Source: a virus. Taken from it: 64,000 bases of DNA. Positions 26,300 to 63,715 of the stretch are shown piece after piece (position 1 is the stretch's first letter; each line of letters starts with the position of its first letter). Under the pieces are notes generated by a model that was not told the origin of the DNA, ran no database searches, and saw nothing but the letters and a program-made list of their open reading frames with translations. Location: IMG/VR virus record IMGVR_UViG_3300019458_000005, positions 1-64,000 of that record. One strand, written 5' to 3'. Made by a program: the position numbers and the translations under genes.

Positions 26300-26815
26300 G
26301 TGCCCCCCAAGCGCATCGAGCTCGACCTCAGGCCTGGCGTCGTCGGGGCCGGGCGCTATGTGATCTGTCCCGCGAGCGAGCATCTGCACGAAGAGGCGCT
26401 CGCGTGCGAGGTCTACCCCAGCTCGAACAAGCAGGTCCCGACCGCTCAGTGCGACTGCGAGACCCGGATCTGGGTCTCGCGCCGCGCGAGCATCGATCAG
26501 CTGCTGAAGTTCGAGGACCTGGCCGGGAGCTTCGACCTGGTCCAGCGCCGCCCTAAGCTCGAGCCGCTCGTGGCCGAGAACAAGGACGAAGCGCGCTATG
26601 TGATCTGCCCCCACTCGGGGCGGATGCACCCCACGGTTCACGCGCTCCTGGTCAAGGAGACAGTGGCCAAGCAGCGGAACGGCAAGACCAGGCCGTGCTT
26701 CTACGCCTACTGCGCCAGCTGTTCGAGCCGCTCATTCCTGGGCCCGCGTTGGAAGCGCGGCTTCGGTTTCTCACTCGAGATGGCGATCGCTCGCAACATG
26801 AGCGTCGCCGGTTAG
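26300..26815 (+). CDS. hypothetical Cys-rich protein (171 aa)
   Basis: ORF track. Internal repeat (G)RYVICP(A/H)S. First gene of the rightward arm. Confidence 0.55.
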   Translation: MPPKRIELDLRPGVVGAGRYVICPASEHLHEEALACEVYPSSNKQVPTAQCDCETRIWVSRRASIDQLLKFEDLAGSFDLVQRRPKLEPLVAENKDEARYVICPHSGRMHPTVHALLVKETVAKQRNGKTRPCFYAYCASCSSRSFLGPRWKRGFGFSLEMAIARNMSVAG

Positions 26816-26823
26816 GAGACCAC

Positions 26824-28407
26824 ATGACCGCCCCTGTCCCGGAGAACGGCAAGTCCGCCACCCACACCGACGAGGAGCTCCCGCGCGCAGAGGTCGCCGT
26901 CGAGGTCCAGGCCCCCAAGAAGATCGGCGGCAAGAAGCGGCGCGCGGCTCCCACGCCCGGAGAGGACGCCCCAGAGCTCGCCGCGGCCGCCGGGGGCTCC
27001 AACTCGCTCGACCTCCTCGCGGCCGAGGAGTCGAACACGATCAAGGTCGAGCGCATGAAGCCCTCCAAGGAGGGCGGCTCGACCCAGACCGGCTCCTGCG
27101 GAGAGATCGACGCCCAGGGCGAGGACCTCTCCAGGGCCATCGAGCGCGAGTGGGGCGGCGGCGAGTACCGCGTGACCGGGTTCCTCTCCGACGGGCGCCC
27201 GGCCACGAAGACGCTGCGCATTCCTGGTCCGTCGCGCTCGCTCACGGAGGACGACCCGTCGATGGACGAGTACGAGGTGCCTACCCAGCGCTACTCGCGC
27301 AGCGCGCCCTACGAGCACTCGCCCTACGGGCCTCCGGGCTACCAGGCGCCTCCGGGGCCGTACATGCCCCCGCAGGCAGGACCTCCGTCCAGGCCCGACT
27401 GGTACAACACCGCTTTCAACCCGAACAGCCGGGTCGAGTTGGACGCGCTCAAGGACCGCCTCACGCAGCTTCAGCGCGACTACGACCAGGAGAAGATGGC
27501 TCACGCTGCGACCCGGGGGCAGCTCGAGGCGGCCCGCGAGCAAGCGCGCAGCGAGGCCACCAAGCGCGAGATGGAGGCGCGGTTCGGGCCGATCACCGCG
27601 CAGCTCGAGGCGCTCCGCTCCGGCCTCGGACGTTCGGGCGGCAACGAGGCCCAACAGATGTTCATGCAGCTCATCCAGCACGCGCAGACTCAGAGCTCGG
27701 CCCAGGCCGAGCGCGAGAACGCGGCTCGTCGTGCGGAGGCCGAGAACTTCCGGGCCATGATGCAGCAACAGGTCTCCCTGCTCTCGAAGGGTCACATCGA
27801 CCCGACCCAGATGATGGCCAACATGATGACGGCCATGCAGCCGATCATCGCGGCCACCCGCGCCCCCACAGCCGACCCGATGGAGATGCTCGAGCGGCTC
27901 GACCGCATGCGCTCCGGTCGCTCGGACGAGGACGACGACCCGGAGGAGCCGCCCCACCCGGCCGTGGCCTTCGCGCAGGCCGCGCTCGAGGCCGTCCAGA
28001 CCTGGAGGGCGCAGAACCAGCTTCCGGCCGCCAACCCACCGCAGGCCTTGCCGGGTCCCGCCCCGCAGGCCCAGTCCCAGGGGGACGACATGACCGACGA
28101 GCTCAAGTGGCTCGCGCTGATCAAGGAGGTCAGCACCTACATCACGGCCGGCGATTCGCCGCACACGGCCGCTCACAAGCTGGCGGCCTGGGCCAACGGC
28201 ACCCAGAGCGTGGGCCACGTCCAGAAGGTGATGGTCATGCCCATCGCCGACCTGGCGCAGCTGCTCGAGAGCAAGGCCGGCGAGGTCAAGATGTCCTTCC
28301 TGCCCGAGATCAAGAAGGAGCTCGAGACCTTCGCGCGGATCCTCCGCGACCCGGGCGGTGCGCAGTGGGTCCAGCAGATGGTCTCCACGCTCAAGACCGG
28401 CAAGTAG
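26824..28407 (+). CDS. hypothetical protein (527 aa), Pro-rich linker plus coiled coil
   Basis: ATG 26824 with AGGAGA 4 nt upstream. PYGPPGYQAPPGPYMPPQAGPP segment, then long helical Gln/Ala/Arg-rich regions. Confidence 0.65.
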   Translation: MTAPVPENGKSATHTDEELPRAEVAVEVQAPKKIGGKKRRAAPTPGEDAPELAAAAGGSNSLDLLAAEESNTIKVERMKPSKEGGSTQTGSCGEIDAQGEDLSRAIEREWGGGEYRVTGFLSDGRPATKTLRIPGPSRSLTEDDPSMDEYEVPTQRYSRSAPYEHSPYGPPGYQAPPGPYMPPQAGPPSRPDWYNTAFNPNSRVELDALKDRLTQLQRDYDQEKMAHAATRGQLEAAREQARSEATKREMEARFGPITAQLEALRSGLGRSGGNEAQQMFMQLIQHAQTQSSAQAERENAARRAEAENFRAMMQQQVSLLSKGHIDPTQMMANMMTAMQPIIAATRAPTADPMEMLERLDRMRSGRSDEDDDPEEPPHPAVAFAQAALEAVQTWRAQNQLPAANPPQALPGPAPQAQSQGDDMTDELKWLALIKEVSTYITAGDSPHTAAHKLAAWANGTQSVGHVQKVMVMPIADLAQLLESKAGEVKMSFLPEIKKELETFARILRDPGGAQWVQQMVSTLKTGK

Positions 28408-28413
28408 GCCAGC

Positions 28414-28689
28414 GTGCCAGCCCGCCACATGCCGGAGGAGGAGTTCGCGAAGCTGTCCGACGGACAGAAGCTCGAGCTCCTGCTCCGCAGCTACGCGGGC
28501 GCGTTCGCGCGGATCATCCAGCTGCTCGAGCAACAGAACGAGCTGCTCGAGCAGCTGGCGGTCGACAAGAATGGCCGGGCGCCCGTGCGGCGACGCAGGG
28601 CGTCCGAGCAGCCTGAGCTGTCTCCACAAGAAGAGATGGCTGAGCGCGCGTTTCGGACCATCTTTCATGGATTCTTCCCAGGCAGGTAG
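28414..28689 (+). CDS. hypothetical protein (91 aa)
   Basis: ORF track, GTG start. Confidence 0.5.
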   Translation: MPARHMPEEEFAKLSDGQKLELLLRSYAGAFARIIQLLEQQNELLEQLAVDKNGRAPVRRRRASEQPELSPQEEMAERAFRTIFHGFFPGR

Positions 28690-28694
28690 GTCCT

Positions 28695-28877
28695 GTGCCC
28701 GAGCACTACGAGTTCCCGGCCGATATCTTGGACACGCGTCCGACCATCACCGAGATCCTCTACAACGCCGGTCGGAAGACGGTCACGTTACTCTCGTGCG
28801 GCCACCGCGCCGTGCTCGAGCGTGCAGACACCAGGACCGGAGACCGGGTGCGTTGCGCCAAGTGCGAGCACCTGTGA
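28695..28877 (+). CDS. hypothetical protein (60 aa), zinc-ribbon-like
   Basis: ORF track. SCGH..CAKCEH. Confidence 0.45.
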   Translation: MPEHYEFPADILDTRPTITEILYNAGRKTVTLLSCGHRAVLERADTRTGDRVRCAKCEHL

Positions 28878-29086: not shown

Positions 29087-29253
29087 GCTGCCGCATCAAG
29101 GACTGGGTTCGCCAAGAGCTCGACGAACCCACTGAGCTCGAGTGCCCTGAGAAGCCCGACGAGTCGGTAGACGGCCACGAGCTCTGCAAGACCCACGCGT
29201 TCGCGGTCCGCGCCTTCGCCCGGAGCTGGGAGCCTGCTACGCTGCCGGCATGA
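29083..29253 (+). CDS. hypothetical protein (56 aa)
   Basis: GTG 29083 forms a GTGA overlap. The stop overlaps the next ATG (ATGA). Confidence 0.4.
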   Translation: MSCRIKDWVRQELDEPTELECPEKPDESVDGHELCKTHAFAVRAFARSWEPATLPA

Positions 29254-30890
29254 CCCAGCCTCGCCCAGTCGTCGCAGCGGCCATGCGTTCGATCTACGCG
29301 CCTCCAGCCACAGCTCACAGCATGGGAGACTTCTTTGACCCGCCGCTCGAGGGGTTGCCCTCGCACCGCCGCAAGGGCGGAGGCGAGGCCGCGCCAGGGT
29401 TCGACTACCGCTGGATCGGCGACAAGGACGTCGGCACCGCCGCCACGATCGACGTGATGAAGAAACTGGCGGTCGACGGGAGCACGCACCCAGGGATCAT
29501 CGCGGCCGCGCAGCGAGTCACGCGTCGCCTCCCTAGCAAGGACTACGAGGCCGAGCTGCGCGCGCTGTTCGAGCTCGTGCGGGAGAACGTGCGCTACAAC
29601 CTCGACCCGCGCGCGATGGAGATGGTCCAACATCCGGCTTACACGATGTTCGTGAGCGGAGTCGGGGACTGCTTCGTGGCCGGGACGCAGGTCCTGCTCA
29701 AGGACGGATACCGCACGATCCCGATCGAGGAGGTGCGAGCTGGGGATCAGATCTGGGGAAAGGACCGCTGGTCTCGCGTCGAGAGGTCCTGGTCCAAGGG
29801 ACGCCTGAGGACCTGGCTCGTTCGGCTGAACAACGGGTCGACCATGCGCCTGACTCCAGACCACAAGGTCTACGTGCTCGATCCTGATTCCGGAGAGGAG
29901 TCGAGGATCACGCTTCGTGAGCTCAGGCCTGGCATGCTGCTCACTCAGCCGGAATCTGTGGCTACCGGGACCGGCGAACAGGACCCGGACATGGCCTACC
30001 TGGACGGGGTCTACCTGTCGGATGGATGGGCCGAGCAGAGCCGGTTCGCGATCTCAGGCAAGGACGGGCACCCGAAAGAGGAACAGAAGCGTAGGGTGCA
30101 GGGGATCTGCTCCCACCGTGGGATCCGTACCAGGTGGGCCAAGAAGTACATCTCGATCCTAGATCGTGATCTCGCCCAGCGCATGCTGAGTATGGGCAGT
30201 AGGGCCTTCAACAAGAAGGCGCTCACAATTGACCTCGAACCGCTCGCCTCCACGCAGCTCCTGTCCGGGATCATGGCCGACTCTGGGCGGAACACTTCCA
30301 GAAAGGAGGCTGAGCTACTAGCTTCGGATCAAAACCTCACAGGCAGGACGTTCACGACCACGTCCTACGCTTTGGCTCTCCAGGTGAGAATTCTCCTCAA
30401 ACAGCAGGGAATCAGCTGCGGAGAGAGCTACGTGCCTGACCATGGAGGCGAGGGTACGCATCCGATCTGGCGACTCCAAACGAGACTTCGTGAGCATGAG
30501 ACCAAAACGCATGTCAAGCGGCTCAAGGTGGTCGAGATCATTCGCGACAACGACCCGCGCGAGTGTTTCGACATCTCCACGGACGACCACTACGTGTGGT
30601 TGCCGCAGGCCGACTGGACGGTCTCGAACTGCGACGATAGCGCGGTCCTCCTGGCCGCCCTCTCGATGGCCGCCGGACACGGCGCGCTCTACCGCACGAT
30701 CCGCACCGACCCGCGTCGCATGGACGAGTTCAGTCACGTCTACCCGCTCCTGGGCTACCGCAACAAGGACGGCGCGTTCTGGTTCTCAAGCGACGTAACC
30801 CACCCGCGCCCCGAAGACGCGCGCTGGGGCTGGGAGGCCCCGCAGGAGGTCCGCTACGGCACGGCCGACTGGATGGTCGCGGGGGTCTAG
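29250..30890 (+). CDS. transglutaminase-like cysteine protease interrupted by an intein
   Basis: The extein reads ..YTMFVSGVGD|CDDSAVLLAALSMAAGHG..FSHVYP..FWFSSDVTHP (Cys-His-Asp transglutaminase-core pattern) once residues 141-460 are removed. Confidence 0.7.
   Translation: MTQPRPVVAAAMRSIYAPPATAHSMGDFFDPPLEGLPSHRRKGGGEAAPGFDYRWIGDKDVGTAATIDVMKKLAVDGSTHPGIIAAAQRVTRRLPSKDYEAELRALFELVRENVRYNLDPRAMEMVQHPAYTMFVSGVGDCFVAGTQVLLKDGYRTIPIEEVRAGDQIWGKDRWSRVERSWSKGRLRTWLVRLNNGSTMRLTPDHKVYVLDPDSGEESRITLRELRPGMLLTQPESVATGTGEQDPDMAYLDGVYLSDGWAEQSRFAISGKDGHPKEEQKRRVQGICSHRGIRTRWAKKYISILDRDLAQRMLSMGSRAFNKKALTIDLEPLASTQLLSGIMADSGRNTSRKEAELLASDQNLTGRTFTTTSYALALQVRILLKQQGISCGESYVPDHGGEGTHPIWRLQTRLREHETKTHVKRLKVVEIIRDNDPRECFDISTDDHYVWLPQADWTVSNCDDSAVLLAALSMAAGHGALYRTIRTDPRRMDEFSHVYPLLGYRNKDGAFWFSSDVTHPRPEDARWGWEAPQEVRYGTADWMVAGV
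29670..30629 (+). mobile_element. intein (320 aa) with LAGLIDADG homing-endonuclease domain
   Basis: Starts CFVAGTQVLLKDG. Block B is LTPDHKV. LAGLIDADG-like motifs YLDGVYLSDGW and LLSGIMADSG. Ends DHYVWLPQADWTVSN followed by the +1 Cys. The central part has lower G+C. Confidence 0.75.
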
Positions 30891-31662: not shown

Positions 31663-34600
31663 ATGAGCGCTGTTGCCGCCGCCCAGGGCCGCATTCAGAT
31701 CAAGCGCTGGTTCACCGCGGCCGCGCGAGACGTGTACGCGGACCTCGAGTGGAAGAAGGTCGACGTCAAAGTCGGTCCGTTCGAACAGAAGGACGTCGAG
31801 GCGCCCACCTTCTGGAGCGAGAGCGCGGTGGGAATTGCCGCCTCCAAGTTCTTCCGCAAGGCCGGCGTGCCTGATGCCGGCACCGAGACCAGCGTGAAGC
31901 AGCTGGTCGAGCGTGTGGTCCAAGCGATCAGGTTGGCCGGAGAGCGCAATGGATACTTCGGAACAAACGCAGGCAGCGCAGACGACTTCATGCGCTCGAA
32001 AATCTTCGAGGACGAGCTCCGCTACCTGCTCATCACCCAGCGCGCGGCCTTCAACAGCCCGGTGTGGTTCAACGTCGGCCTGAAGGAGGCCTACGGGATC
32101 GCCGGAGAACCCGCCGGTAACTGGCGCTACGACGTCAACACCCAGTGCGTTTTACCGACCAAGGACTCCTACACGAACCCCCAGTCGTCGGCCTGCTTCA
32201 TCCAGTCCATCAAGGACGACCTGATGGACATCGCCGAGCACGTTCAGCGTGAGATGCGGATCTTCAAGTACGGCTCGGGCTCCGGGACCAATTACTCGAG
32301 CTTGCGCGCCAAGAACGAAAAGCTCAGCAACGGCGGCTCGAGCTCGGGCGTGCTCTCGTTCCTCGAGGTGTTCGACAAGTCGGCCGGCGCGATCAAGTCC
32401 GGCGGCACCACCCGGCGTGCGGCCAAGATCTGCATCCTCGACGTCGACCACCCGGACATCGAGGAGTTCGTGACCTGGAAGGCGCGCGAGGAGAAGAAGG
32501 CCAAGGCTCTGATCGCCGCCGGCTACGAGAGCGACTTCAACGGCGAGGCCTACCGCACGATCTCGGGCCAGAACGCCAACAACTCGGTTCGCGTGACCGA
32601 CGCCTTCATGAAGGCCGTCGAGACCGACGGCGAGCACGCGCTGCGCTGGAGGACCTCCGGCGACATCGCGAACCGCGTCTCGGCCAAGGCCCTGTTCCGC
32701 ACGATCGCCCAGGCCGCGTGGGAGTGCGCGGATCCGGGCCTCCACTTCGCGGACACGACCAACCGCTGGCATACGTGCCAGGACACGAGCGAGATCCGCG
32801 CGGCCAATCCGTGCGTACCTGGTCACACGCTGATCCTGACCCGGGACGGGGACAGGCGGATCGACAGCCTCGTGGGTCAGCTGGTGGACGTCTGGAACGG
32901 ACTGCAGTGGTCGGCGGTCAGTCCGCGCGTGACCGGCACCAACCAGCCGCTCGTGCGGGTGACCCTGAACGACGGCGCCTTCCTTGACTGCACGCCCACG
33001 CATCAGTTCATCCTCGCGGACGGATCTCGCAGGCCTGCCGGAGAGCTCGCGAAGGGCGAGGAGTTGGGCAAGTTCGAGATGCCACAGGTGGAACCAGGAC
33101 AGCCTCGCTCCCAGTCGCGGACCGTCGAGTCTGTCGAGAGCATCGGCACCGCCGAGAAGGTCTACTGCTTCACGGAGCCGCTGAACCACTCTGGCACGTT
33201 CAACGGCATCGTGACGGGGCAGTGCCAGGAGTACCTCTTCATCGACAACTCGGCCTGCAACCTCGCGAGCCTGAACCTGGTCAGGTTCCAGAAGGACGAC
33301 CTGAGCTTCGACCACGAGGGCTTCGCGCACGCCTGCAGGGTGATGTTCCTCGCGCAGGAGATCCTGGTCGACTACGCCAGCTACCCCACGGCCGAGATCT
33401 GCGAGAACTCGCATCTGTACAGGCCACTGGGCCTGGGCTACGCGAACCTGGGCGCGCTGATCATGCGCTGCGGGCTGCCATACGACTCGGACGACGCGCG
33501 GCAGCTCGCGGCCGAGATCACCTCGCTCATGACCGCGACCGCCTACGAGACCAGCTGCGACATGGCGGCCGCGATGGGTCCGTTCGAGCGCTGGAAGGCC
33601 AACCGGAAGGGCGCGCTCTCGGTTCTGGAGGCGCACTACCTGGCCTTCCGCGATCTGGACCACGACTACTCGCCGATCGGTAGGCGCGCGGTCGACACCT
33701 GGAGTCGGGTCGTGGGCAAGGCGCAGCTCACCGGAATCCGGAACGCCCAGGCGACCCTGATCGCGCCCACCGGCACGATCTCGTTCCTCATGGACTGCGA
33801 CACCACCGGCCTCGAGCCAGAATTCCAGCTGGTCAAGGAGAAGCTCCTGGCTGGGGGCGGCACGCTCTACATCGAGAACCGCTCGATCCGAACCACGCTC
33901 GAGAGCCTTGGCTACATGAACGGCGCCGTGGACCAGATCGTGGACCACATCCGCATGGGCGAGGGGCTCGAGACCTGCAAGCAGCTCGACAAGGCGCACG
34001 TGCCCGTGTTCGACTGCGCGGTCAAGCCGCCCAAGGGCACGCGCGCAATCGACCCCATGGGTCACATCCGGATGCTCGAGGCGATCGCGCCGTTCATCTC
34101 GGGCTCGGCCTCGAAGACGGTCAACTGCCCCCACGAGACCACCGTCGAGGAGATCGAGAAGCTCTACCTCGAAGCCTGGCGACGCGGTCTCAAGGCGATC
34201 GCGGTCTACCGCGAGTCGTCGAAGGGCTGCCAGGTCCTGACCGGAGGCAAGTCGGCACTTCTGCCGGAGACAAAGAGCGCGCAGACCCTGCCACATCCTG
34301 TCGAGACCAAGCGGATGCGCCTCCCCAAGAAGCGCACCGGCTTCACGCAGGAGGCGCGGGTCGCCGGGCAGAAGATCTATGTGCGCACGGGCGAGTATCC
34401 CGACGGGCGCCTGGGCGAGATCTTCATCGACATGGCCAAGGAGGGCGCGACCATGCGGAGCATGGTCAACACCCTGGCTATTGCGGTCTCGCTGGGTCTC
34501 CAGCACGGCGTGCCCCTCGAGGAATACGTGGACGTGTTCACGTACACCAACTTCGCCCCCAACGGAGTCGTGACCGACCACCCGAACATCAAGCTCTGCA

Positions 34601-37803: not shown

Positions 37804-37818
37804 AAGCGAGCGCGCTCC

Positions 37819-39029: not shown

Positions 39030-39033
39030 CTCC

Positions 39034-39701: not shown

Positions 39702-39703
39702 CC

Positions 39704-50875: not shown

Positions 50876-50902
50876 AGACCAAAACAGCTAGTATGCCCAG
50901 GC

Positions 50903-51148: not shown

Positions 51149-51150
51149 AC

Positions 51151-52940: not shown

Positions 52941-53434
52941 GACATCGAAACGCCAGCTCGGATGACCGTGCGCGCCGAGCTGAGCGCTACGCTCGAGGAG
53001 GGGACCGCGCCCAGTTCGAGGTGCATTACCAGGAACTTCTCCGGCAGGGTCGGGCGCCGTACTACAACGCCCAGGTGGCCGAGCTCCTGAACTCGGAGTT
53101 CAATCTGCCGTTCGTGCCGGAGTGGATCCGAGATCTAGACCTGTCTGAGTTCATTCAGGCCGAGGTGGTTGGGCCAGGAGAGCTGGGCGGCGTATGGTTC
53201 CGCTACCTGGTGGTCGTGTGCGGCGTAGTCCACAGCTCGGCTGATGCGTGGCTGACCAGCGGCAAGACGCTCAAGGAAGCCGCAGAGCAGTGCCTGATCC
53301 AGCTGCGCGGCGACATCGATCTTCCTTGGCAACCGGTCCTGGTGATCGACCTGGCGTTCATGGAGCCAGTCCCGTTCGACATCGGGATCAGCGTAGGAGG
53401 CGAACAGGCCTGGCAGAGCGAATGGGATCGCTGA
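52937..53434 (+). CDS. hypothetical protein, leader-family member (165 aa)
   Basis: GTGA-coupled start. MRHRNASSDDRARRAERY..VHYQELLRQGRAP. The C-terminal ..LKEAAEQCLIQL..VLVIDLAFMEPVP parallels ..LAEAAHFLIDAL..SYVIDLMFMEEVP in the previous protein. Confidence 0.6.
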   Translation: MRHRNASSDDRARRAERYARGGDRAQFEVHYQELLRQGRAPYYNAQVAELLNSEFNLPFVPEWIRDLDLSEFIQAEVVGPGELGGVWFRYLVVVCGVVHSSADAWLTSGKTLKEAAEQCLIQLRGDIDLPWQPVLVIDLAFMEPVPFDIGISVGGEQAWQSEWDR

Positions 53435-54888: not shown

Positions 54889-54971
54889 CTCGAGAGGGCC
54901 GGCCCGAGTGCGTTCCGGCCCGCATCCAACCAGCGCTGATCTCGGTCAGAGCTGGGTGGTCTCCAGAGCCT

Positions 54972-55006
54972 CCCCCGAGGACACGGATGGTCCGGGTCCT
55001 CGGGGG
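54972..55006 (+). terminator. hairpin downstream of the Lys-rich protein gene
   Basis: CCCCCGAGGAC-13 nt-GTCCTCGGGGG: 11-bp perfect stem. Confidence 0.4.
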
Positions 55007-55135
55007 GCAAAGGCTCCGGCGACATGACAGCGCGAGAGGGATCTGGCAGCGAGGCGCTCCGCCCCTGACCGGAACAGCGACCCGGCGCAATCCACAGTGG
55101 CTCACCCGATGAGGGAAGCCCAAGGAAAGAACAGC

Positions 55136-55801
55136 ATGGGTCCTCAAGGCATGCCGGTCGTCGCGCTGCCCACTCCCGGAGTGGTCGGCGGGCGTCCTCG
55201 CAAGCAGCCTCTCGTCGACACCGAGGTGATCGGTGGGACGGCGGCTGTCCCGGCGGAGATCAACATCTACGCCAACTTCAGCCAGTTCCGCATCGCGCCC
55301 ATCGTCAACACGAACATCACCCAGACGAAGCAGTACGGGCGCGATACGAACCTGAAGAGCTCCGGCGGCGGCACCTTGCCGCAGTCGTCGTTCTTCTACT
55401 GGTACAAGAGCCGGATCGTCCTCAAGACGTACCTCACCGCGCTCAACACCAGCGGGAACTGCGTCGCGTACGAGGAGATCCAGCGCCTCAGGTTCCTGGG
55501 CGCCTGGTTCTTCAACTTCCAGCAGACCGAGCTGGTCGTGATGCCGCTCGACGAGCTCCCCTCGGGCGTCGGCTCGGCCGCCGGCTCGACCAGCTCGATC
55601 AACAACATCAACGCCCCGAGCCTCACCTGGGGCCCGTGGGACGGTCGTGACATGACCGTCTCGGGTCGCCCGGTTGGCATCGAGGCGCTGCAGCAGTTCA
55701 ACGTGAACATCAAGTGGCCGCAGACCACCGGCTTCACGCCGACCCTCGACTACTTCATCTCGTCGCGTCTCGACGGCCTGCTGCTCCTGGGCATCAGCTA
55801 G
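55136..55801 (+). CDS. beta-rich structural protein (221 aa); candidate single jelly-roll capsid/penton protein
   Basis: AAGGAAAG upstream of ATG 55136. No helix-rich or low-complexity regions. Followed by the strongest hairpin in the window. Confidence 0.5.
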   Translation: MGPQGMPVVALPTPGVVGGRPRKQPLVDTEVIGGTAAVPAEINIYANFSQFRIAPIVNTNITQTKQYGRDTNLKSSGGGTLPQSSFFYWYKSRIVLKTYLTALNTSGNCVAYEEIQRLRFLGAWFFNFQQTELVVMPLDELPSGVGSAAGSTSSINNINAPSLTWGPWDGRDMTVSGRPVGIEALQQFNVNIKWPQTTGFTPTLDYFISSRLDGLLLLGIS

Positions 55802-55838
55802 TCGACCTACCCGACCGCGTAGTTCCGCTCGTTCCTCT

Positions 55839-55868
55839 CAGCGGCCCTGGATCACTCCAGGGCCGCTG
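55839..55868 (+). terminator. strong hairpin terminator after the 221-aa structural gene
   Basis: CAGCGGCCCTGGA-tcac-TCCAGGGCCGCTG: 13-bp perfect stem, 4-nt loop. Confidence 0.6.
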
Positions 55869-56022
55869 GTCTGTACGCGCTTCCCCGCCCGCGCTCGACC
55901 TGCTAGGCTGTTCCGTAGCCCGAAGCGCCCCAAGGCTTACCAGCCCACACGCGCTTCCTCGAGGCCTCACCCGCAGCCGGAGCTCCACAGGACCTCTCGC
56001 TCGAGCGCGGAGAGGTCTTCCC

Positions 56023-57084
56023 GTGCAGGCTCAGCTCCACGTCGGCGAAAACGCCTGGAACCCCTACGCGAACGTGCCCTTGCTTATGCGCGGGCCCGAT
56101 CCGCGCACCGGCAAACAGAAGACCTACGTCAACCGCGGCAAGTACTCGCAGAAGTTCTGCGAGTTCACCACGCAGACCTACCCGATCACGGTGCCCGCCA
56201 ACGCGCGGAACCGGACCTCGATCGTGCCTCAGGCAGACCAGGGCGGCGCGGGCGACGTCGAGTTCTACCAGTGGTGGTCGGCCTCGACCGGGCAGTACGC
56301 GGTGATGCTCACGAACCTGGCCATGGGCGGGATCAAGCTCATGAACCAGCCGGTCGAGAGCTCGCTGATCTTCGGCAACGGCCCCCAGCTCCCCGGAAAG
56401 CTCCTCCAGCCGGTGTTCGTGGCCGCGACCGACGCGCTCGACGTCGAGCTCACCGACCTCTCGGGCCTCTCGAACGACGTGCGCCTGGTCGCGCATGGCT
56501 GCCAGATCGTCGACCCCATGAACACCCTGGGCGTCACCCAGCAGCAGGTTCGGGCCGCGATGTACAACCCGAACGTCGTCCCCTACTGGCTCACGTTCGA
56601 CTCGGGCTCGCAGGTGACCGTGGCCGGTAGCGCCTCGGGCACCGAGTTCACGATGACCATCCCCTCGAACGGCGACTTCAACAGCTGGTCGCTCGTGGGC
56701 CGAACCACCGCGCCCACCGCTCTCACGGTCGAGATCTTCGAGGGAAACCGCCGCAGGTTGATGAACGGCCCGATCCGCTTCGACCAGTGCATGTCGACCA
56801 CCGGCCAGACGGCCTCGCTGAACGCGGCCTCGATCCCGTTCGTGTGGAACTTCTCGCACACGTTCGAGCGAAAGACCCAGCTCGTGTTCCGCTTCACCGA
56901 CACCAGCGCCTCGCCCCAGGTGATCTCCTGCGCGCTATGGGGACAGATCGTCTACTACGATCAGAGCCCGCCCTCGCTCACTGCGATCAACAGCCTGCGC
57001 GGAGTAGCACAGGCCATGGCGCCGGCTTACGCGGCGCCGTCCGGCCAGATGGTCGGCATGCGCGGCCTCCGGGGCCGGCGGTAA
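56023..57084 (+). CDS. beta-rich structural protein (353 aa) with internal tandem duplication; candidate double jelly-roll major capsid protein
   Basis: GAGAGG 7 nt upstream of GTG 56023. The two halves share IKLMNQPV..(L)TDLSG..GCQIV and RRLMNGPI..(F)TDTSA..GQIVY at similar spacing. Confidence 0.45.
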   Translation: MQAQLHVGENAWNPYANVPLLMRGPDPRTGKQKTYVNRGKYSQKFCEFTTQTYPITVPANARNRTSIVPQADQGGAGDVEFYQWWSASTGQYAVMLTNLAMGGIKLMNQPVESSLIFGNGPQLPGKLLQPVFVAATDALDVELTDLSGLSNDVRLVAHGCQIVDPMNTLGVTQQQVRAAMYNPNVVPYWLTFDSGSQVTVAGSASGTEFTMTIPSNGDFNSWSLVGRTTAPTALTVEIFEGNRRRLMNGPIRFDQCMSTTGQTASLNAASIPFVWNFSHTFERKTQLVFRFTDTSASPQVISCALWGQIVYYDQSPPSLTAINSLRGVAQAMAPAYAAPSGQMVGMRGLRGRR

Positions 57085-57093: not shown

Positions 57094-58317
57094 GTGCTCA
57101 ACCACCGCGTCTCGCCGCCAGTGCCGTTCCACCTGCTTCCGCCCCACATCCAGGCGGCGATCGCGGCTCGCGCTCAGCGCGTGAACGGTCCGTCCGGTCC
57201 TCCCGGCGGAGGCACAGCTCCGGGAGGTATGGCTGGCCTGGGGAACTTCGGCATCGCTGGCTCGCCTGAGCCATGGTCCCTGCCTCCCTACGCTCAGCGC
57301 CTTCCGCTGGTCGCTCGAGCCGGCCAGCTGGGACAGGCCGGCGCGGCCCCGGAGCTCCTTCCGGCCGGCCCGGACGCGGCCAACCTCCAGGCCGCCGATC
57401 CGGTTGGCCCCGCGAACCCTTGGGCCGGGACGCCGCTCGAGGACCTGCCGCTCCTTGAGGCGCTGAAGCTCGCGTCGCGTCAACTGGTGTGGATCCAGCA
57501 CCCGTCGCCGATCGACAGCAAGCCGCTCCTGGGCACGCGCGAGCAGTACACCGAGACGGCCGTGATCGCCCCGCCCACCGACATCGCTTCCGCTGGCGCG
57601 ACCGCTGGAGCTCAGGCCTTGGCCGATGGCTACAGCTCGAGCTCGGGAGAGGTGACCGCGGTTCTCACGCCAGCCAACGCCGCCGACTTCGAGACGATAT
57701 TCCAGTTCACTGTCCCTCCGGGGCGCGCGTTCCTGGTGTGGTCGGTGGCCGGCGAGTGCCACGACTACCTGGGCATGGCGAACGTGATCAAGTTCCGGGT
57801 CCGGGTGGGCACGACCCTGATCGTCCCCGAGACGCAGCTGGGCTTGATCGGCGCGCCCTCGAACCAGCTCGTCGTGCAGGAGATGGCCTACGAGAACCAG
57901 ACGGTGTTCTTCGAGGGCCGAAACCTCGACGGCGAGTCCGGCACGCTCGTGACCGCTTACCTCCTGGGCTGGAGCTTCCCACTCAAGGGCACCGGCCTCG
58001 ACTGGGGCGACCTCTCGAGCAGCGGCAGCTCGACCTGGGGCGAGCGCGAGGGACCCGAGGCCATGGACCCCGGCGAGCCGGTTCGGATCCCGCTCTCGCA
58101 GGCTGCGCCAGGGAACCCACGCTACGGCGGCCTCCCGGTGTGGACTCACCCGCTCAACGGCGAGGCCGTATGGGCGCCGGTCCAAGGCATCCCTGGCCTC
58201 TCCGACCCGCGTTGGGCGGGTTACCGCATGACCTGGACCGGGACCATGTTCGTGGTCGATCAGCACAGCCAGCCGCTGCCTGGGTTCGACCTGGCCACGA
58301 TGACGATCTACGGGTAG
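57094..58317 (+). CDS. structural protein (407 aa): Gly/Pro/Ala-rich N-terminus plus beta-sandwich-like C-terminal domain
   Basis: AAGAGG upstream of the GTG. FQFTVPPGRAFLVWSVAG..VIKFRVRVG..NQTVFFEGRNLDGESGTLVTAYLLGWSFP. Confidence 0.55.
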   Translation: MLNHRVSPPVPFHLLPPHIQAAIAARAQRVNGPSGPPGGGTAPGGMAGLGNFGIAGSPEPWSLPPYAQRLPLVARAGQLGQAGAAPELLPAGPDAANLQAADPVGPANPWAGTPLEDLPLLEALKLASRQLVWIQHPSPIDSKPLLGTREQYTETAVIAPPTDIASAGATAGAQALADGYSSSSGEVTAVLTPANAADFETIFQFTVPPGRAFLVWSVAGECHDYLGMANVIKFRVRVGTTLIVPETQLGLIGAPSNQLVVQEMAYENQTVFFEGRNLDGESGTLVTAYLLGWSFPLKGTGLDWGDLSSSGSSTWGEREGPEAMDPGEPVRIPLSQAAPGNPRYGGLPVWTHPLNGEAVWAPVQGIPGLSDPRWAGYRMTWTGTMFVVDQHSQPLPGFDLATMTIYG

Positions 58318-58686: not shown

Positions 58687-58689
58687 CCC

Positions 58690-59466
58690 ATGCCCATTCA
58701 GATCATGGAGGGGCCAAGCCTCTCGGTGGTGTTGGCTGGCGACGGCGCGGCCAACACACCTCCATCTCTGCGCTGGCGAGTGGTGGGGTGCGCGCGCCTG
58801 GTCGGACTCCTCGAGGTCACGGCTCCAGAGCTCACTCCGGCGCTGGTGATCTCGGACAAGGACTACACGCAAACCGAGATCATCGAGCTCCAGCAGGACG
58901 ACGAAGGGAACTACGTCATCGGGGCCGAGCTCACGATGCCATACGTGGAGCTCTTCCCCGGCGGAGTCACGCTGGTCAAAGGCACGCCAGATCCCGGCGA
59001 CTACACCGACATGTCCTTCACCGCGCAGATCCTGCCTGGATCTGGCGCAGGGTCAGGAGGCGGAGGTGGCGGAGGTGGCGGTGGCGTCGCCTACGAGGTC
59101 GAGAACGACTTCTCGGGCGCGATCGCGCAGAACGCACAGACCGTAGCCGAGCTGGCCCTCCAGGCCCGCAAGGTCACGATCGAGCTCATCTCGCTCACGG
59201 CTTCCGACCTGCTCGACTACGAAGTTCTGATCTACGACGCAGCTGGCGGATCAGCCAGCGACTTCGTGGGCAAGGTGAGTATGTCTTCTGCGAACGCTGT
59301 GCTAGTCGTGGGCGACTCGCTCTACATGTACGAGGCCACATGCTCGATCTCGTACATCGCGCCCCCGCTGGGAGATCAGAGCCTGTGGGTCGGGCTCTCG
59401 CCCAGGAGCGGAGGGAAGAACGCCAAGACCTGCCTCACCAAGGTCACCTACCGGACAGGGGCCTAA
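58690..59466 (+). CDS. structural-block hypothetical protein (258 aa) with poly-Gly linker
   Basis: ORF track. GSGAGSGGGGGGGGGG separates two beta-rich halves. Confidence 0.6.
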   Translation: MPIQIMEGPSLSVVLAGDGAANTPPSLRWRVVGCARLVGLLEVTAPELTPALVISDKDYTQTEIIELQQDDEGNYVIGAELTMPYVELFPGGVTLVKGTPDPGDYTDMSFTAQILPGSGAGSGGGGGGGGGGVAYEVENDFSGAIAQNAQTVAELALQARKVTIELISLTASDLLDYEVLIYDAAGGSASDFVGKVSMSSANAVLVVGDSLYMYEATCSISYIAPPLGDQSLWVGLSPRSGGKNAKTCLTKVTYRTGA

Positions 59467-59469
59467 GCC

Positions 59470-59901
59470 ATGGCCGCACTCACCCAAGCTGTCGAGGCCT
59501 ACGCGCGCGGCTGCCAGAACGGATCGAACTCGGTCACCACGACTCCGTACCGCACCGGACTCACAACCGCCGACTCGTTCAACCTCACCTCGCCTCTCTC
59601 GGGCGGAGCGTTGCTCAAGAAGGTCGGCGGGCGAACCACCGCCTACGTGGCCGGGTCGTTTTCGGCGGCCAGCGCCACGGTGGTCCTGGTCGTCGTGTTC
59701 TACGGCCAGTCCGGGAGCTCCACGGGCGCGATGATCGGTCACGCCAAGATCACGCTCACGGCCGACGCGAATCTCTTGCGCGACGGCACGCGCTTCGACG
59801 CGCCGCCAATCCCGGTGGATTGCCTCTCGGAGAACTACGAGGTCCGCGTGTACAGCGCACCCAGCTCGGGCAACGTGCAGCTGTTCACCTGGGTCGAGTA
59901 A
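59470..59901 (+). CDS. structural-block hypothetical protein (143 aa)
   Basis: ORF track. Tightly packed after the previous gene. Confidence 0.55.
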   Translation: MAALTQAVEAYARGCQNGSNSVTTTPYRTGLTTADSFNLTSPLSGGALLKKVGGRTTAYVAGSFSAASATVVLVVVFYGQSGSSTGAMIGHAKITLTADANLLRDGTRFDAPPIPVDCLSENYEVRVYSAPSSGNVQLFTWVE

Positions 59902-59941
59902 CGCAAAAAACAGCGCAGGTCAGCGCGAGGAGTAGTCAGCC

Positions 59942-62089
59942 ATGGGTGTCGGCAAGATCCTCGCAGTGATGGGCGGCGCCAATATCGCCCCTGTGTTGGG
60001 CGGACCGCTCACGCTGGGCGACGGCACGGTCTCGAAGGGCCTCAAGCTGGGCCAGGCCGCGGCGGACCCGCTCCATATCAAGGGCTCTGCCGACCCTAAC
60101 GGGAGCGTGACCGCCCCAGCTGGCTCGCTCTACCAGCGAACCAACGGCAGCGCGTACATCAACACCAACAGCGCGACCACGTGGGCTCAGGTCCAGGCCG
60201 GGGCGGTGGCCACATGGGCGGCCACGCTGGCTTCAGGAAACGTGACCGGGGGCACCTCGCCAGTCCTCTCGAGCGGCGACACGTTCCGGGGGGTGGACGC
60301 AGCGACCGGGACGCCCATGGCGATCCGGGGCGGAAACTCGAGCGGGGCTGCCACGGCGGGCGGCGCGGTCACCGTCACCGGCGGCAACTCGACCACCTCG
60401 GGGGCCGGGGGCGCGGTCACGATCAGAGGCGGCACGCCGACCTCTGGGATAGGCGGAGCGATCACGCTGTCTATCCCAACCTCCACTTCTGGTGCTGGCG
60501 GCGCGGTCTCGATCTCTGCTGGCGACGCTGACGGGTCCAATGCCGGAGGAGCGGTCACGATCGAGGGCGGCGCGCGCGGGAACGTCGGAAACGCGGACGG
60601 CGGGCGACTCACGCTCGCTGGCGGCGTGTCTGGTACTGGAGGTGACGCAACCCTTGCCGGAGGCGCTCAGGGCCCAGGCGGTTCGGGCTCGACCAACGGA
60701 GGCGCCGTAATCGTCACAGGAGGGACGCCCAGTACCACCGGAAGCGGCGGAAACGCGACGCTGCAGGGCTCTGCTGGCGGCTCCTCCGGCAACCGCAACG
60801 GCGGCAACGTCACGGTCACGGCCGGCAACGCCGGTACGGGTGGCACGGGGGCCGCCGGCACGGTCACGATCACCGCGGGCCAGGGCGGGACGACCTCGGT
60901 CGGCGGAACGGCCTCGCTCGTGGCTGGCCAAGGCGGCTCTGGCAACTCGGCTGGCGGTGCGGCCTCGGTGACCGGCGGGCAAGGTGGCGCGACCGGCGGC
61001 AACGGGGGAAACGTCACGATCTCTGGCGGCCTGGGCGTGGCTACCGGGGCGCCGGGCGGGAACGTCACTATCCAGGGCGGGGCAGGAACGGACGGCCCTG
61101 GCTCTCAGCTGACCCTCCAAGGCCGCCCTGGCGTGGGCACAAACCGCGCGGGTGGTGCGGTCACCGTGTCCGCGGGTGCCTCGACTGGGAATGCGACCGG
61201 CGGCAGCGTCAACATTACCGCGGGCGCAGGCGGCGCGACCGGAACCGCGGGAACTGCCTCGCTCACGGCCGGAGCAGGCGGCACGGGTGCGGCGACCGGC
61301 GGCCCGATCACGATCACCTCAGGGGCAGGCGGGGGGACCTCTGGCGCGTCCGGGACGGTGACGCTCGCCTCGGGAACGACCACCTCGGGCAACTCGGGCG
61401 CGATCACGGTCCAGCCTGGCGCGCCAACCGCAGGTAACGGTGGAGCGATCAACGTCACCGGGGCCGCGGGCAACGGCTCCAACAACGTCGGCAGCACGAT
61501 CACGATCCTGGCCGGGGCTTCGGTGGGCACCGGGACGGGCGGCGCGGTAGCAGCCACGGCCGGAGCGGGCGGCGGGGGAGCGGCCACCGGCGGAGCCGTC
61601 ACGCTCACCTCCGGCGCGGGCGGCGGCACCTCCGGCAACTCCGGCGCGATCTCGCTGGTCACCGGCACGACCACCTCGGGCAACACGGGCGATATCAACC
61701 TCACTTGCGGAGCCCCGACCGGTGGCACGCGCGGGCGGATCGTCCACACCGGGAACGTGATCCCCGCGGCCGACAACACCTACTCGCTGGGGATTGCGGG
61801 CACGGCCTGGTCGGACCTGTTCCTCGAGGCCGTGATCGACACGACCGCGGGCGATGCCGCCACGATCGACGCGCCAGCGGGCAGGTTCCGGAAGGACACC
61901 AGCGGGACCACGTTCACGTTGACGAACAACCGGATTAGCGCGAGCTCAATCATTCTGCTCACGTTCGTGGACGTGGACGTGACGGCCTTCAATATGGCAG
62001 TGGCCGCTGGAGCCGGGAGCGCGGTGATCACGTTCAACGCGGCGCCTACCGCGAATTGCAACGTGAACTTCCTGGTGATCAACGCGTGA
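59942..62089 (+). CDS. Gly-rich repeat fibre/spike protein (715 aa)
   Basis: GAGGAG upstream. N-terminal GSLYQRTNGSAYINTNSATTW. About 30 degenerate repeats of GG(A/N)(V/I)T(V/I).(G/A)G...(T/S)G. Distinct C-terminal domain. Confidence 0.7.
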   Translation: MGVGKILAVMGGANIAPVLGGPLTLGDGTVSKGLKLGQAAADPLHIKGSADPNGSVTAPAGSLYQRTNGSAYINTNSATTWAQVQAGAVATWAATLASGNVTGGTSPVLSSGDTFRGVDAATGTPMAIRGGNSSGAATAGGAVTVTGGNSTTSGAGGAVTIRGGTPTSGIGGAITLSIPTSTSGAGGAVSISAGDADGSNAGGAVTIEGGARGNVGNADGGRLTLAGGVSGTGGDATLAGGAQGPGGSGSTNGGAVIVTGGTPSTTGSGGNATLQGSAGGSSGNRNGGNVTVTAGNAGTGGTGAAGTVTITAGQGGTTSVGGTASLVAGQGGSGNSAGGAASVTGGQGGATGGNGGNVTISGGLGVATGAPGGNVTIQGGAGTDGPGSQLTLQGRPGVGTNRAGGAVTVSAGASTGNATGGSVNITAGAGGATGTAGTASLTAGAGGTGAATGGPITITSGAGGGTSGASGTVTLASGTTTSGNSGAITVQPGAPTAGNGGAINVTGAAGNGSNNVGSTITILAGASVGTGTGGAVAATAGAGGGGAATGGAVTLTSGAGGGTSGNSGAISLVTGTTTSGNTGDINLTCGAPTGGTRGRIVHTGNVIPAADNTYSLGIAGTAWSDLFLEAVIDTTAGDAATIDAPAGRFRKDTSGTTFTLTNNRISASSIILLTFVDVDVTAFNMAVAAGAGSAVITFNAAPTANCNVNFLVINA

Positions 62090-62346
62090 GCGAGCGCGAC
62101 GATCCTATGAAGGTCGGCCACTGGGCCATGGTCGCGATCGCCGTTGTGCTGGGGATCGGCTGGGTCCTGATCTGCAGCATGGTCCTCATGGGCTGCGCCA
62201 CCAAAGAGGCCTCACAAGAGCGGTGCCCGGCCCCATATCCCTGCAACCATCCGCACAAGCGGATCACCTTCCGCACCGAGTGCCGAGACTGCGACACCTG
62301 CCTGATAGAGCTCCAAGAGGTCGTCCACGACCAGCGCGTCAGGTAA
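62086..62346 (+). CDS. small lipoprotein/membrane protein
   Basis: GTG 62086 forms a GTGA overlap with the fibre stop (alternative ATG at 62107). AMVAIAVVLGIGWVLICSMVLMGC has a lipobox-like LMGC. Cys-rich tail. Confidence 0.5.
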   Translation: MSERDDPMKVGHWAMVAIAVVLGIGWVLICSMVLMGCATKEASQERCPAPYPCNHPHKRITFRTECRDCDTCLIELQEVVHDQRVR

Positions 62347-62355
62347 CATGCCCGC

Positions 62356-62778
62356 ATGAGCAAGAACGGCAAGCCGCTGAAGTTCCCGGACACGAAGCAG
62401 CCCGAGCGCCGCCAGGCCAGCTCCGAGCAGTTCCTGGCCACTCGCCTCATCAACGCGCTCTCGGCCAACCAGGCCAAGAACGAGCGCATCTCGCAGCTAG
62501 AGCGCGAGCTCGCGCAGGCCGCCGAGAAGATCGCCAACCTCGAGGCGCAGGTCTCGGCCCAACTGAACCGCGGCGAGCAGGACGTGATCGACGAGCTCCG
62601 GAAGACCTACAGCCTCCCTATCGAGCCCTACCAGATCACCGCTCCGGACCGCAACGGAGCGCGCTTCTTCCTGAAGCTGGGCGAGGAACTCGCTGTGGCT
62701 GCCCCTGCAGTTCCTCCGCTCGAGCCGGATCCGACCAGCGATCCGCCGACCAACCGCATTGACAACCAGGAGAGCTGA
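62356..62778 (+). CDS. hypothetical coiled-coil protein (140 aa)
   Basis: ORF track. Confidence 0.55.
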   Translation: MSKNGKPLKFPDTKQPERRQASSEQFLATRLINALSANQAKNERISQLERELAQAAEKIANLEAQVSAQLNRGEQDVIDELRKTYSLPIEPYQITAPDRNGARFFLKLGEELAVAAPAVPPLEPDPTSDPPTNRIDNQES

Positions 62779-62839
62779 CCCAAGGGTTTATCTCAGAGGA
62801 GGTTGCCGCCTGGTCACCTTGCCGGATACCCTGTAGGTC

Positions 62840-63373
62840 ATGCCCACAACGTCCGATCAGGGACAGGTCCAGGCCGTTGCCAACGGCGCGCAAAACGCCG
62901 GGGTCGTGACCAAACTACTCACCGCAGCTGGTGCCGTCTCGGGGTCAGCTTCGGCGGTCGGGATCCTGGGCGGGGGACGCGAGTGGGCCGCGCTAGCCCG
63001 AGATCTCGGGCTCAAGACGACAGCCGTGATTTTCGGAATGCTCGCAGTCACGATGTTTTTGCGTTGGTGCGCGACCCACCTGGTCGTGCCGCTTGTCACC
63101 ACGCACGTGCGCTACGTGAACAAGTCAGAACAGCAGGGCGAACGCCTGACCCTGGCCAACGAGCGGCAAGCTGGTTCGATCGAGCGCCTCGAGACCACCG
63201 TCACAGGCCTGGCGCGCGGACAGAGCGAGATCAAGCAGGAGCTCCTTACGCAGGCGCGCGCGCAGACTGAGCTGCGCGCGGACTTCGTCAACCACACCGC
63301 GCGAATCGAGAACGCGGTCGAGCGCCTGATCAGCGGCGCCACACCCAATCCGCCTCCCAAGAAGAACACCTAG
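62840..63373 (+). CDS. membrane protein with coiled-coil C-terminus (177 aa)
   Basis: Hydrophobic VVTKLLTAAGAVSGSASAVGILG and TAVIFGMLAVTMFLRW. Confidence 0.55.
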   Translation: MPTTSDQGQVQAVANGAQNAGVVTKLLTAAGAVSGSASAVGILGGGREWAALARDLGLKTTAVIFGMLAVTMFLRWCATHLVVPLVTTHVRYVNKSEQQGERLTLANERQAGSIERLETTVTGLARGQSEIKQELLTQARAQTELRADFVNHTARIENAVERLISGATPNPPPKKNT

Positions 63374-63382
63374 GAGACCACC

Positions 63383-63715
63383 ATGCAGCCGTGCCCAGGC
63401 GTTCGGTATCCGAACGGACAAGTCCAGCCCTGCGGATCGCAGAACTTCACGCCCGTACAGGGAGAATCGACCACGATCGCTGGGTTCGTCCACGCGATCG
63501 CGCTGTGCGAAAACGGCCACCGCGTGGCCGTGCCGGTCCTCGGCCCGCGCTGCAGCAACTGCGGCCATCAGGAGGCGATCCGGGCCGGAGGCGACCAGCA
63601 TGTCCCTACGGGCGCGCTGAATCCGCTCGCGGTCCAGCGCTTCGAGCAGGGCGGCTCGCAGCGCCAGACGATGCAGAACGCAGCTCGAGCCGCCGGCATC
63701 GGCGGCGTGATCTAG
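63383..63715 (+). CDS. Cys-rich hypothetical protein (110 aa)
   Basis: AGGAGA upstream of ATG 63383. C..C...C..C zinc-ribbon-like spacing. Confidence 0.5.
   Translation: MQPCPGVRYPNGQVQPCGSQNFTPVQGESTTIAGFVHAIALCENGHRVAVPVLGPRCSNCGHQEAIRAGGDQHVPTGALNPLAVQRFEQGGSQRQTMQNAARAAGIGGVI

Follow-up and report, generated by a model that had tools for sequence, protein, structure and literature searches.

The 64,000-nucleotide stretch of DNA analyzed here (the window; positions 1-64,000 of record IMGVR_UViG_3300019458_000005) appears to be most of the complete, circular 81.7-kb genome of a bacterial virus, whose virion would be of the type known from Salisaeta icosahedral phage 1 (hereafter SSIP-1). 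We give this reading a probability of about 0.6. The icosahedral particle of SSIP-1 (T=49) has no tail and contains an internal membrane; the phage, whose genome is a 44-kb circle, is unclassified (PMC6260650, PMC6356626). Genes of the window, called from codon bias, lie in two divergent arms separated by an 86-nt gap, a leftward arm (61-26213, -) and a rightward arm (26300-63715, +). An earlier note on this DNA had described the rightward arm as about 45 tightly coupled, late-looking genes devoid of tailed-phage hallmarks, and had proposed either a very divergent tailed phage with its packaging and head genes outside the window, or an unusually large tailless virus with an internal membrane. 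Its outline of the arm was accurate as to coordinates, gene number (44 genes were called), common orientation and tight packing (9 of the 43 junctions are longer than 60 nt).

Recovery of the complete element

Two proteins of the window were both found on a single 81,695-bp contig of public assemblies, the DNA of which is identical to the window where they overlap. The offsets of the two mappings of the window on this contig are 81,667 bp apart, and the contig ends are spanned by the window; the molecule therefore assembles as an 81,667-bp circle. Other assemblies of the same genome measure 81,790 and 81,808 bp. As the end overlap varies with the assembler, a circular closure is more likely than a fixed terminal repeat. 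The whole element, whose recovery the earlier note had called for, was thus obtained: the recovered sequence covers all but 132 bp of it, and the window represents 78%. The 17.7 kb outside the window are transcribed almost wholly leftward and encode a tyrosine integrase, methyltransferases, an Imm5-like protein, orphans, and a 1152-aa fusion of a glycosyltransferase with an S-adenosylmethionine (SAM)-dependent methyltransferase.

A capsid-like protein with two homologous jelly-roll-type domains

The gene at 56023-57084 (+) encodes a 353-aa capsid-like protein with few close homologues. An AlphaFold2 model built on ten sequences (pLDDT 71.5, pTM 0.70) consists of two jelly-roll-type beta-sandwiches, i.e. 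an all-beta double sandwich and not an HK97 fold. When this model was compared to BFVD with Foldseek, the top match was I1ZBI0, a 256-aa viral protein (E 6e-10, TM-score 0.65, root mean square deviation 5.8 Å), clearly separated from the next matches; the capsid protein of tectivirus GC1 and giant-virus capsid-like proteins came lower. We take I1ZBI0 to be a protein of SSIP-1, although the accession could not be confirmed. The SSIP-1 record (JN880423) contains a structural protein of exactly 256 aa, gp47, which also ranks first when all 57 SSIP-1 proteins are aligned to the capsid-like profile (hhalign; a weak match, P ~1e-3, the next protein being at 0.06); I1ZBI0 is probably gp47. In the PDB, the model retrieved the double jelly-roll capsid proteins of SGIV, PBCV-1 and PM2 together with the enzyme peptidylglycine hydroxylating monooxygenase (PHM), all with TM-scores of 0.3-0.4; Foldseek probabilities were 0.97-1.0 for the capsid proteins of PM2 (P2), GC1, SGIV and PBCV-1.

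The two halves of the protein are related to each other: profiles of the N- and C-terminal halves of the family align over 120 columns (hhalign 99.7%, E 4.6e-26), and on this comparison the protein is a tandem duplication of a jelly-roll-type domain of about 140 aa. To our knowledge, the two barrels of canonical double jelly-roll proteins have no detectable sequence similarity. In an alignment of 93 sequences of the family, four glycines are the only near-invariant residues, which speaks for a structural role and against a catalytic one. A PHM-like enzyme was considered and rejected, no metal-ligand pattern being conserved among the 93 homologues.

An exhaustive profile search assigned 523 cluster representatives of 280-490 aa to this family, 228 of them at E <= 1e-10. 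None of 20 sampled representatives carries a functional name, and Pfam gave only scattered chance hits on 93 members. Family profiles of this protein and of its 221-aa neighbour found nothing meaningful among PDB sequences. The earlier note had singled out a trio of beta-rich, jelly-roll-like proteins on the arm; the 353-aa member is the only one of the three that structure prediction validated, the model of the 221-aa family (seven sequences) having failed with a pLDDT of 41.

A homologue of SSIP-1 gp34 interrupted by an intein

The second link with SSIP-1 concerns a 546-aa transglutaminase-like protein (Cys-His-Asp) encoded at 29250-30890 (+). In a proteome-wide comparison with phmmer it matches the SSIP-1 structural protein gp34 at E 1.5e-9 (hhalign 95%). 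It is interrupted by a 320-residue intein (residues 141-460; 29670-30629, +), recognized by Pfam Intein_splicing and Hint and containing LAGLIDADG-like motifs. Once spliced, the 226-aa extein matched SSIP-1 only (E 3e-6) in a tblastn search of 50,697 phage records. The catalytic Cys of the transglutaminase-like core follows the intein directly, and intein-free orthologues in relatives carry Pfam Transglut_core. The junctions, placed by alignment with gp34, read GVGD/C...SN/CDDSAVLLAAL where gp34 has MADCDGMSTLAAAL; the C-terminal junction is SN/C instead of HN/C.

Conservation of the virion module in metagenomic relatives

Relatives of the capsid-like protein were sought in several collections. 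A closer alignment of the protein (A1) found none in IMG/VR or in the 185,579 species genomes of GTDB, tblastn with the family gave no hits in plasmids and cultured phage records, and one further locus came from a scan of metagenomes. On relatives' contigs of 40-64 kb (designated here by L numbers), a triad composed of the gp34-like gene, a gene of about 220 codons and the duplicated jelly-roll gene recurs. The triad is present at G+C contents of 70-72% (L004, L009, L016, L099), members of the family ranging overall from 48 to 72%. The shared order begins with the transglutaminase-like gene, followed by a coiled-coil protein of about 500 aa with a C-terminal transmembrane helix, small membrane proteins and a basic/hydrophobic protein; it continues with a 215-221-aa protein, the duplicated jelly-roll protein, a protein of 180-400 aa and orphans, including a large fibre-like one, and ends in several relatives with a giant glycosyl-/methyltransferase. 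The 221-aa gene precedes the 353-aa gene in all relatives whose contig reaches upstream of the capsid-like gene. The transglutaminase-like protein of L099, which belongs to a distant subgroup with capsid-like proteins of about 290 aa, also matches SSIP-1 gp34 (E 5e-8). In 12 samples a contig of the same length, 50,729 bp, was recovered with varying break points; this points to a further genome that is complete and circular.

The giant fusion of a family-2 glycosyltransferase and a SAM-methyltransferase (1084-1152 aa) is located at about 71560-75020 (-) of the element, at 16434-19712 of L004 and at 14758-18012 of L009. It adjoins the virion module in all three, and L016 has a smaller, 456-aa Glycos_transf_2 protein instead. 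It might modify virion proteins or host envelope glycans.

Search for tailed-phage hallmarks

Pfam scans or precomputed Pfam hits covered all called genes of the element, and PHROGs was run on right-arm proteins of at least about 140 aa and, for the left arm and the 17.7-kb remainder, on the larger orphans. The results below hold at the level of profile hidden Markov models, with predicted structures for two proteins (353 and 221 aa). On the right arm no family of terminase, portal, prohead protease or scaffold, HK97 capsid, tape measure, tube or sheath, or baseplate was recognized, in agreement with the earlier note. The 17.7 kb outside the window contain no terminase, portal or capsid family either, and the whole element contains no head, packaging, connector or tail family. 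The idea that the missing hallmarks lie beyond the window is therefore disfavoured: the flank in which a terminase-portal-capsid-tail module was sought also lacks head, tail and packaging genes. The only canonical P-loops of the element belong to PIF1 (GVAGTGKS) and SNF2 (DATGVGKT), both on the left arm, so that the absence of a Walker A motif from the right arm stands as first described. A P-loop split by an intein was also looked for; the sole intein is located in the transglutaminase-like gene and not in an ATPase gene. The recovered virion-module segments of the relatives were likewise free of P-loop ATPase motifs or families and of head or tail families, the sole exception being L014, a distant relative with a tailspike-like beta-helix protein near the homologue. 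Megablast of 24.7 kb against phages gave no match.

These results bear directly on the possibility of a very divergent tailed phage (Caudoviricetes), whose hallmarks would be hidden among the orphans and whose jelly-roll, 221-aa and fibre proteins would be parts of the tail, baseplate or receptor-binding apparatus. The size of the genome, its integrase and its many auxiliary genes would be typical of such a phage. Tandem beta-sandwiches are frequent in tail fibres, many low-scoring BFVD matches of the 353-aa model are tail proteins, and the tailspike-like protein of L014 would fit as well. Against this, a complete genome yielded none of the expected families, and every hallmark, terminase included, would have to evade both the Pfam and the PHROGs libraries; of all phage proteins, the large terminase subunit is as a rule the most readily detected. 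There is no P-loop beyond the two helicases and no long tape-measure-like gene, the sole cultured virus with a virion protein in common is tailless, and the strongest structural match is the 256-aa viral protein and not a tail protein. We consider a divergent tailed phage unlikely; it keeps some weight because about half of the proteins of the element are orphans, including large ones (814, 527, 520, 503 and 407 aa), and only two proteins were modelled.

Membrane and basic proteins

The membrane proteins announced by the earlier note are present. Eight proteins encoded between 36241 and 41317 (+) each have one C-terminal transmembrane helix followed by a tail rich in lysine and arginine (K/R). 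At least six (36241-40308) were counted with a hydropathy threshold, and those at 37819-38700 and 40310-41317 were read from their C-terminal sequences. K/R residues make up 8/14, 8/12 and 9/14 of three tails, of which RRRSRSTTKKRGRK is an example. The 520-aa protein and several small members of this cluster are conserved in relatives, and from its hydropathy profiles the cluster is a candidate set of internal-membrane proteins. A further gene, at 53596-54888 (+), encodes a basic protein of 430 aa whose N-terminal 215 aa contain 44% K/R and 3 acidic residues and are followed by three transmembrane helices. This gene lies directly upstream of the 220-aa gene, a position kept in relatives, and its product is a candidate DNA-condensing membrane anchor. 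The eight tail-anchored proteins and this protamine-like membrane protein are consistent with an internal membrane.

Abundant membrane proteins without a packaging motor, a circular genome with an integrase, and basic membrane-anchored proteins that could serve as nucleoproteins might also be expected of a non-icosahedral or enveloped virus (pleomorphic, spindle-like or of a new architecture), in which the membrane proteins would belong to the envelope, with the jelly-roll protein and the fibre projecting as spikes from its surface. The tandem jelly-roll protein, however, best matches capsid proteins of icosahedral viruses, gp34 links the element to an icosahedral virus, and the bacterial pleomorphic and enveloped DNA viruses known to us are small. 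Such a morphotype seems quite improbable.

It is still less credible that the element is a plasmid or an integrative element whose supposed virion genes specify cell-surface or secreted proteins. The molecule is indeed circular and carries an integrase, no capsid or packaging family was recognized and the IMG/VR search remained without a match. On the other side, Pfam identified no conjugation, partition or plasmid replication family among the genes of the element, and no match was found in 72,556 plasmids. Many families are shared with phages, namely ribonucleotide reductase (RNR), phrog_2554, 4652, 10141, 586, 5935 and 15946, Mom and the L5 gp82-like domain. The homology to a proven virion protein and the divergent two-arm layout with tightly coupled genes also speak for a virus.

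Genes adjoining the capsid-like gene

The 221-aa protein (55136-55801, +), with 48-86% identity to relatives, is the most conserved of the module. Its gene is always directly upstream of the duplicated jelly-roll gene, and the protein is a candidate small or second capsid protein. It has two paralogues, of 350 aa (element 66335-67387, -) and 286 aa (80866-81726, -, ending at window base 59), both on the opposite strand and outside the virion module; L012 likewise has two copies. A short related motif occurs in a 101-aa protein at 63717-64022 (-). Hairpins with 14-bp GC stems (z -3.0 to -4.7) are found downstream of the 221-aa gene in the window and in three relatives, conserved in position and not in sequence; in the window one is also present 3' of the basic-protein gene. 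Their locations, with perfect GC-rich stems of 13-16 bp, are 54889-55015 and 55838-55869 in the window, 9947-9981 in L004, 9947-9983 in L009 and about 4007-4037 in L012. They may be transcript-stabilizing or attenuating elements, and together with the conservation they would fit a 221-aa gene that is highly expressed and structural. A scan of the virion block for consensus promoters and terminators gave nothing above chance.

Directly after the capsid-like gene comes that of a 407-aa protein (57094-58317, +) with a Pro/Gly/Ala-rich N-terminus and a beta-rich C-terminal domain; homologues of 269-290 aa occupy the same position in L011, L013 and L016. It is a candidate vertex (penton-like) protein on account of its position. 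Two orphans of 258 and 143 aa (58690-59901, +), without significant family hit, lie between the capsid-like genes and the fibre gene and are candidate minor virion proteins; the 143-aa one has a homologue in L016. Profiles of the 221-aa, 407-aa, 143-aa and basic-protein families were compared by hhalign to the jelly-roll domain and to all SSIP-1 proteins, with no result (best P 0.013, for the 407-aa C-terminus). The fibre noticed earlier is real: the gene at 59942-62089 (+) encodes a repetitive 715-aa protein rich in Gly, Ala and Thr, with a globular C-terminal domain and no match in Pfam, PHROGs or tblastn against phages. Relatives have proteins of 515-618 aa at the equivalent position, one of them tailspike-like, and the 715-aa protein is a candidate vertex spike or receptor-binding fibre. 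The last four small genes of the arm (62086-63715, +) include two whose products have one predicted transmembrane helix.

A working model and the evidence that weighs against it

Under the preferred reading, a tailless virion of the SSIP-1 type, the shell would be built from the 353-aa protein, for which the fold was predicted by modelling, the duplication is shown and the capsid role is proposed. The 221-aa protein, presumably highly expressed, would probably co-build it, in a two-capsid-gene arrangement like that of SSIP-1 gp46-gp47. The 407-aa protein and the Gly-rich fibre would form vertex structures, and the eight tail-anchored proteins would populate an internal lipid vesicle. The circular DNA could be condensed against this membrane by the 215-aa protamine-like domain and the basic tails. 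The transglutaminase-like cysteine enzyme, a virion protein by homology, might act in entry, by cleaving the cell wall, or in maturation. The left arm and the 17.7-kb remainder would supply replication, recombination, DNA modification and the tyrosine integrase. A terminase-portal machine would be absent; because no packaging motor is recognizable, we propose that the membrane and shell may co-assemble around the condensed circular DNA, unless an ATPase has diverged beyond detection. Packaging by co-assembly is the weakest step of this model.

Several observations count against an SSIP-1-type virion. A packaging ATPase is present in most viruses of the PRD1-adenovirus lineage, and no FtsK/HerA-superfamily (A32-like) ATPase was detected in the element. 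SSIP-1 itself possesses one, gp40 (Walker A GEKGSGKST), of which we identified no homologue in the element by phmmer or among nine virion-module family profiles by hhalign. The choice between such an ATPase and a terminase-portal pair, which the earlier note had put forward as decisive, thus told against the tailed phage but did not deliver the positive sign of the alternative. As to the capsid, TM-scores to solved double jelly-roll capsid proteins are only 0.3-0.4, PHM, a non-viral enzyme with two jelly-rolls, scores as well as they do, and the identification of I1ZBI0 as gp47 is founded on length and a weak profile match. The unusable 221-aa model and the two paralogues of this protein, unusual for a capsid protein, must also be counted, as must the tailspike-like protein of L014 and the fact that the links with SSIP-1 concern two of about 100 genes. 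The large tailless virus with an internal membrane suggested in the earlier note therefore gains from the two-jelly-roll protein, the gp34 homologue and the membrane cluster, and loses from the expected ATPase that was not found.

A bolder version is doubtful at present. In it, the element would represent a new lineage, of family or order rank, of 40-82-kb tailless, membrane-containing bacterial viruses, and would give its first complete genome; at least 523 metagenomic clusters of capsid proteins would fall in this lineage. Filling of the capsid would need neither a terminase nor an FtsK/HerA ATPase, the circular DNA being condensed on protamine-like membrane-anchored proteins, and the shell protein, with its tandem duplication still visible in the sequence, would be a living intermediate between single and double jelly-rolls.

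Other features of the window

The window has a G+C content of 65%, and no tRNA was found in it. The rightward arm was only in part what the term late-looking implies: its genes are co-oriented, include virion-type ones and are syntenic in relatives, but RNR, helix-turn-helix (HTH) regulators and other non-structural genes found there make it a mosaic of virion, auxiliary and regulatory genes and not a pure late operon. The class II (B12-dependent) RNR at 31663-34857 (+; Pfam Ribonuc_red_lgC, E 4e-124, Ribonuc_red_2_N and TSCPD; phrog_84) is an auxiliary gene within the arm and not a virion gene. Pfam also recognized on this arm a nucleoside deoxyribosyltransferase-like gene, a DUF6884 domain, Fis- and Xre-type HTH domains, a mycobacteriophage L5 gp82-like domain and a glyoxalase. 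The closest cellular homologues of the RNR, about 50% identical, come from Bacteroidota (Chitinophagaceae) and from Sumerlaeota metagenome-assembled genomes, in the same broad Fibrobacterota-Chlorobiota-Bacteroidota (FCB) group as Salisaeta, the host of SSIP-1. This might serve as a pointer to the host, a weak hint because the element has 65% G+C.

The leftward arm (61-26213, -) is devoted to replication, recombination, nucleotide metabolism and DNA modification, as judged from Pfam families (SNF2, DUF1643, ThyX, PD-(D/E)XK, Rad52-like, PIF1, C5 methyltransferase, Mom). For its largest protein, of 814 aa (555-2999, -), a single homologue was found in 5.8 billion clusters, and Pfam, PHROGs and the PDB gave no match; the protein may be an unrecognized replicative polymerase or primase. 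DNA-modification genes, namely a C5-cytosine methyltransferase, a Mom-family gene and a Methyltransf_24 gene, are located at 16490-18175 (-) and 23745-24593 (-) of the window and at about 70770-71489 (-) of the element; these genes suggest that the genome is heavily modified against restriction. Between 18290 and 19600, about 1.3 kb have no convincing gene and a + strand strongly rich in C (GC skew -0.2). Irregularly spaced within this segment are 8 co-oriented copies of TGCCTGCCGTGTC, with at most 2 mismatches; the 64 kb contain 1 further match. The iteron-like array could be an origin of replication, a site for partition or another cis-acting element.

Two observations concern proteins of the rightward arm and beyond. 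The 682-aa protein encoded at 42278-44326 contains phrog_2554, of unknown function, at residues 66-331. This family occurs in 151 phage records (Mycobacterium, Gordonia, Klebsiella, roseobacters, Caulobacter), mostly near a genome end. A motif of about 30 aa, NPxDERMRRAER...LGD..A, is present in at least eight proteins, three times in one of 666 aa, encoded at 42278-53434 of the window and, in the full element, at 64019-64324 (-) and 80866-81726 (-). The motif is often N-terminal, as it is in one paralogue of the 221-aa protein. As a shared peptide it could act in docking or targeting; an oligomerization module is another possibility.

Significance and comparison with known viruses

If the preferred reading is true, the genome-size ceiling of cultured tailless membrane-containing phages would be almost doubled, and SSIP-1 would join a widespread lineage not captured by viral databases, in so far as IMG/VR had no relative by the closer capsid-protein profile and cultured phage records had no match. 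A capsid protein whose halves are still homologous would bear on the hypothesis that double jelly-rolls originated by duplication of a single one, and the encapsidation of an 82-kb circular genome without a recognizable packaging ATPase would call for an explanation. In practice, virus-detection pipelines that rely on tailed-phage hallmarks will overlook this group.

The element resembles Caudoviricetes in the size of its genome, in the divergence of an early and a late arm, in carrying auxiliary metabolic genes and an integrase, and in several shared PHROG families; it differs from them in that a complete element has no recognizable terminase, portal, HK97 capsid, protease or scaffold, tape measure, tube, sheath or baseplate. 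Prokaryotic double jelly-roll viruses of Bamfordvirae (PRD1 and GC1, Tectiviridae; PM2, Corticoviridae; FLiP, autolykiviruses, STIV) have, as is predicted for the element, two jelly-roll-type domains in one polypeptide, and an internal membrane, many small membrane proteins and vertex fibres are features of the group. Their genomes are of 9-18 kb (PMC6260650), the 353-aa model reaches TM-scores of 0.3-0.4 to their capsids, and the element lacks their FtsK/HerA ATPase and a recognizable protein-primed DNA polymerase.

Viruses of the Helvetiavirae type (the Thermus phages P23-77 and IN93; the haloarchaeal SH1, HHIV-2 and HCIV-1) have two vertical single-jelly-roll capsid proteins and an internal membrane, and SSIP-1 is assigned to this structural subgroup in published work (PMC4958249, PMC5332951, PMC6356626). 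The likeness would lie in a small and a large capsid protein encoded side by side, the large one with two beta-barrel domains. The differences are that their genomes measure 17-31 kb and encode a conserved packaging ATPase, not found here, that the domains of the large protein of the element are sequence-homologous duplicates, and that P23-77 capsid proteins are outside the top 50 PDB fold matches of the 353-aa model.

SSIP-1 is the nearest of the known viruses. Both genomes are circular double-stranded DNA, with a transglutaminase-like virion protein (gp34 in SSIP-1), many small membrane proteins and a majority of orphans, and both have a gene for about 210-220 aa directly upstream of the capsid-like gene (gp46-gp47 as compared to the 221-aa and 353-aa genes), with no similarity detected between the 221-aa family and gp46. 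Four SSIP-1 proteins that were looked up are each singletons among 15 billion proteins. The element differs in that only two of its proteins are detectably related to those of SSIP-1 and that neither the gp40 ATPase nor the 2319-aa gp43 has a counterpart in it; it adds an integrase, RNR, ThyX, helicases, recombinases, DNA-modification genes and the giant glycosyl-/methyltransferase. Among cultured bacterial viruses that lack a tail and contain a membrane, genomes range from 9 to 44 kb, and SSIP-1 has been an orphan without known relatives (PMC6260650, PMC6356626). A tailless virion with an internal membrane would thus be of a known kind; novelty would lie in the lineage, in a packaging ATPase that is apparently lacking, in the duplication visible in the sequence of the capsid-like protein, and in the size of the genome, 1.9 times that of SSIP-1 and 5-8 times those of PRD1 or PM2.

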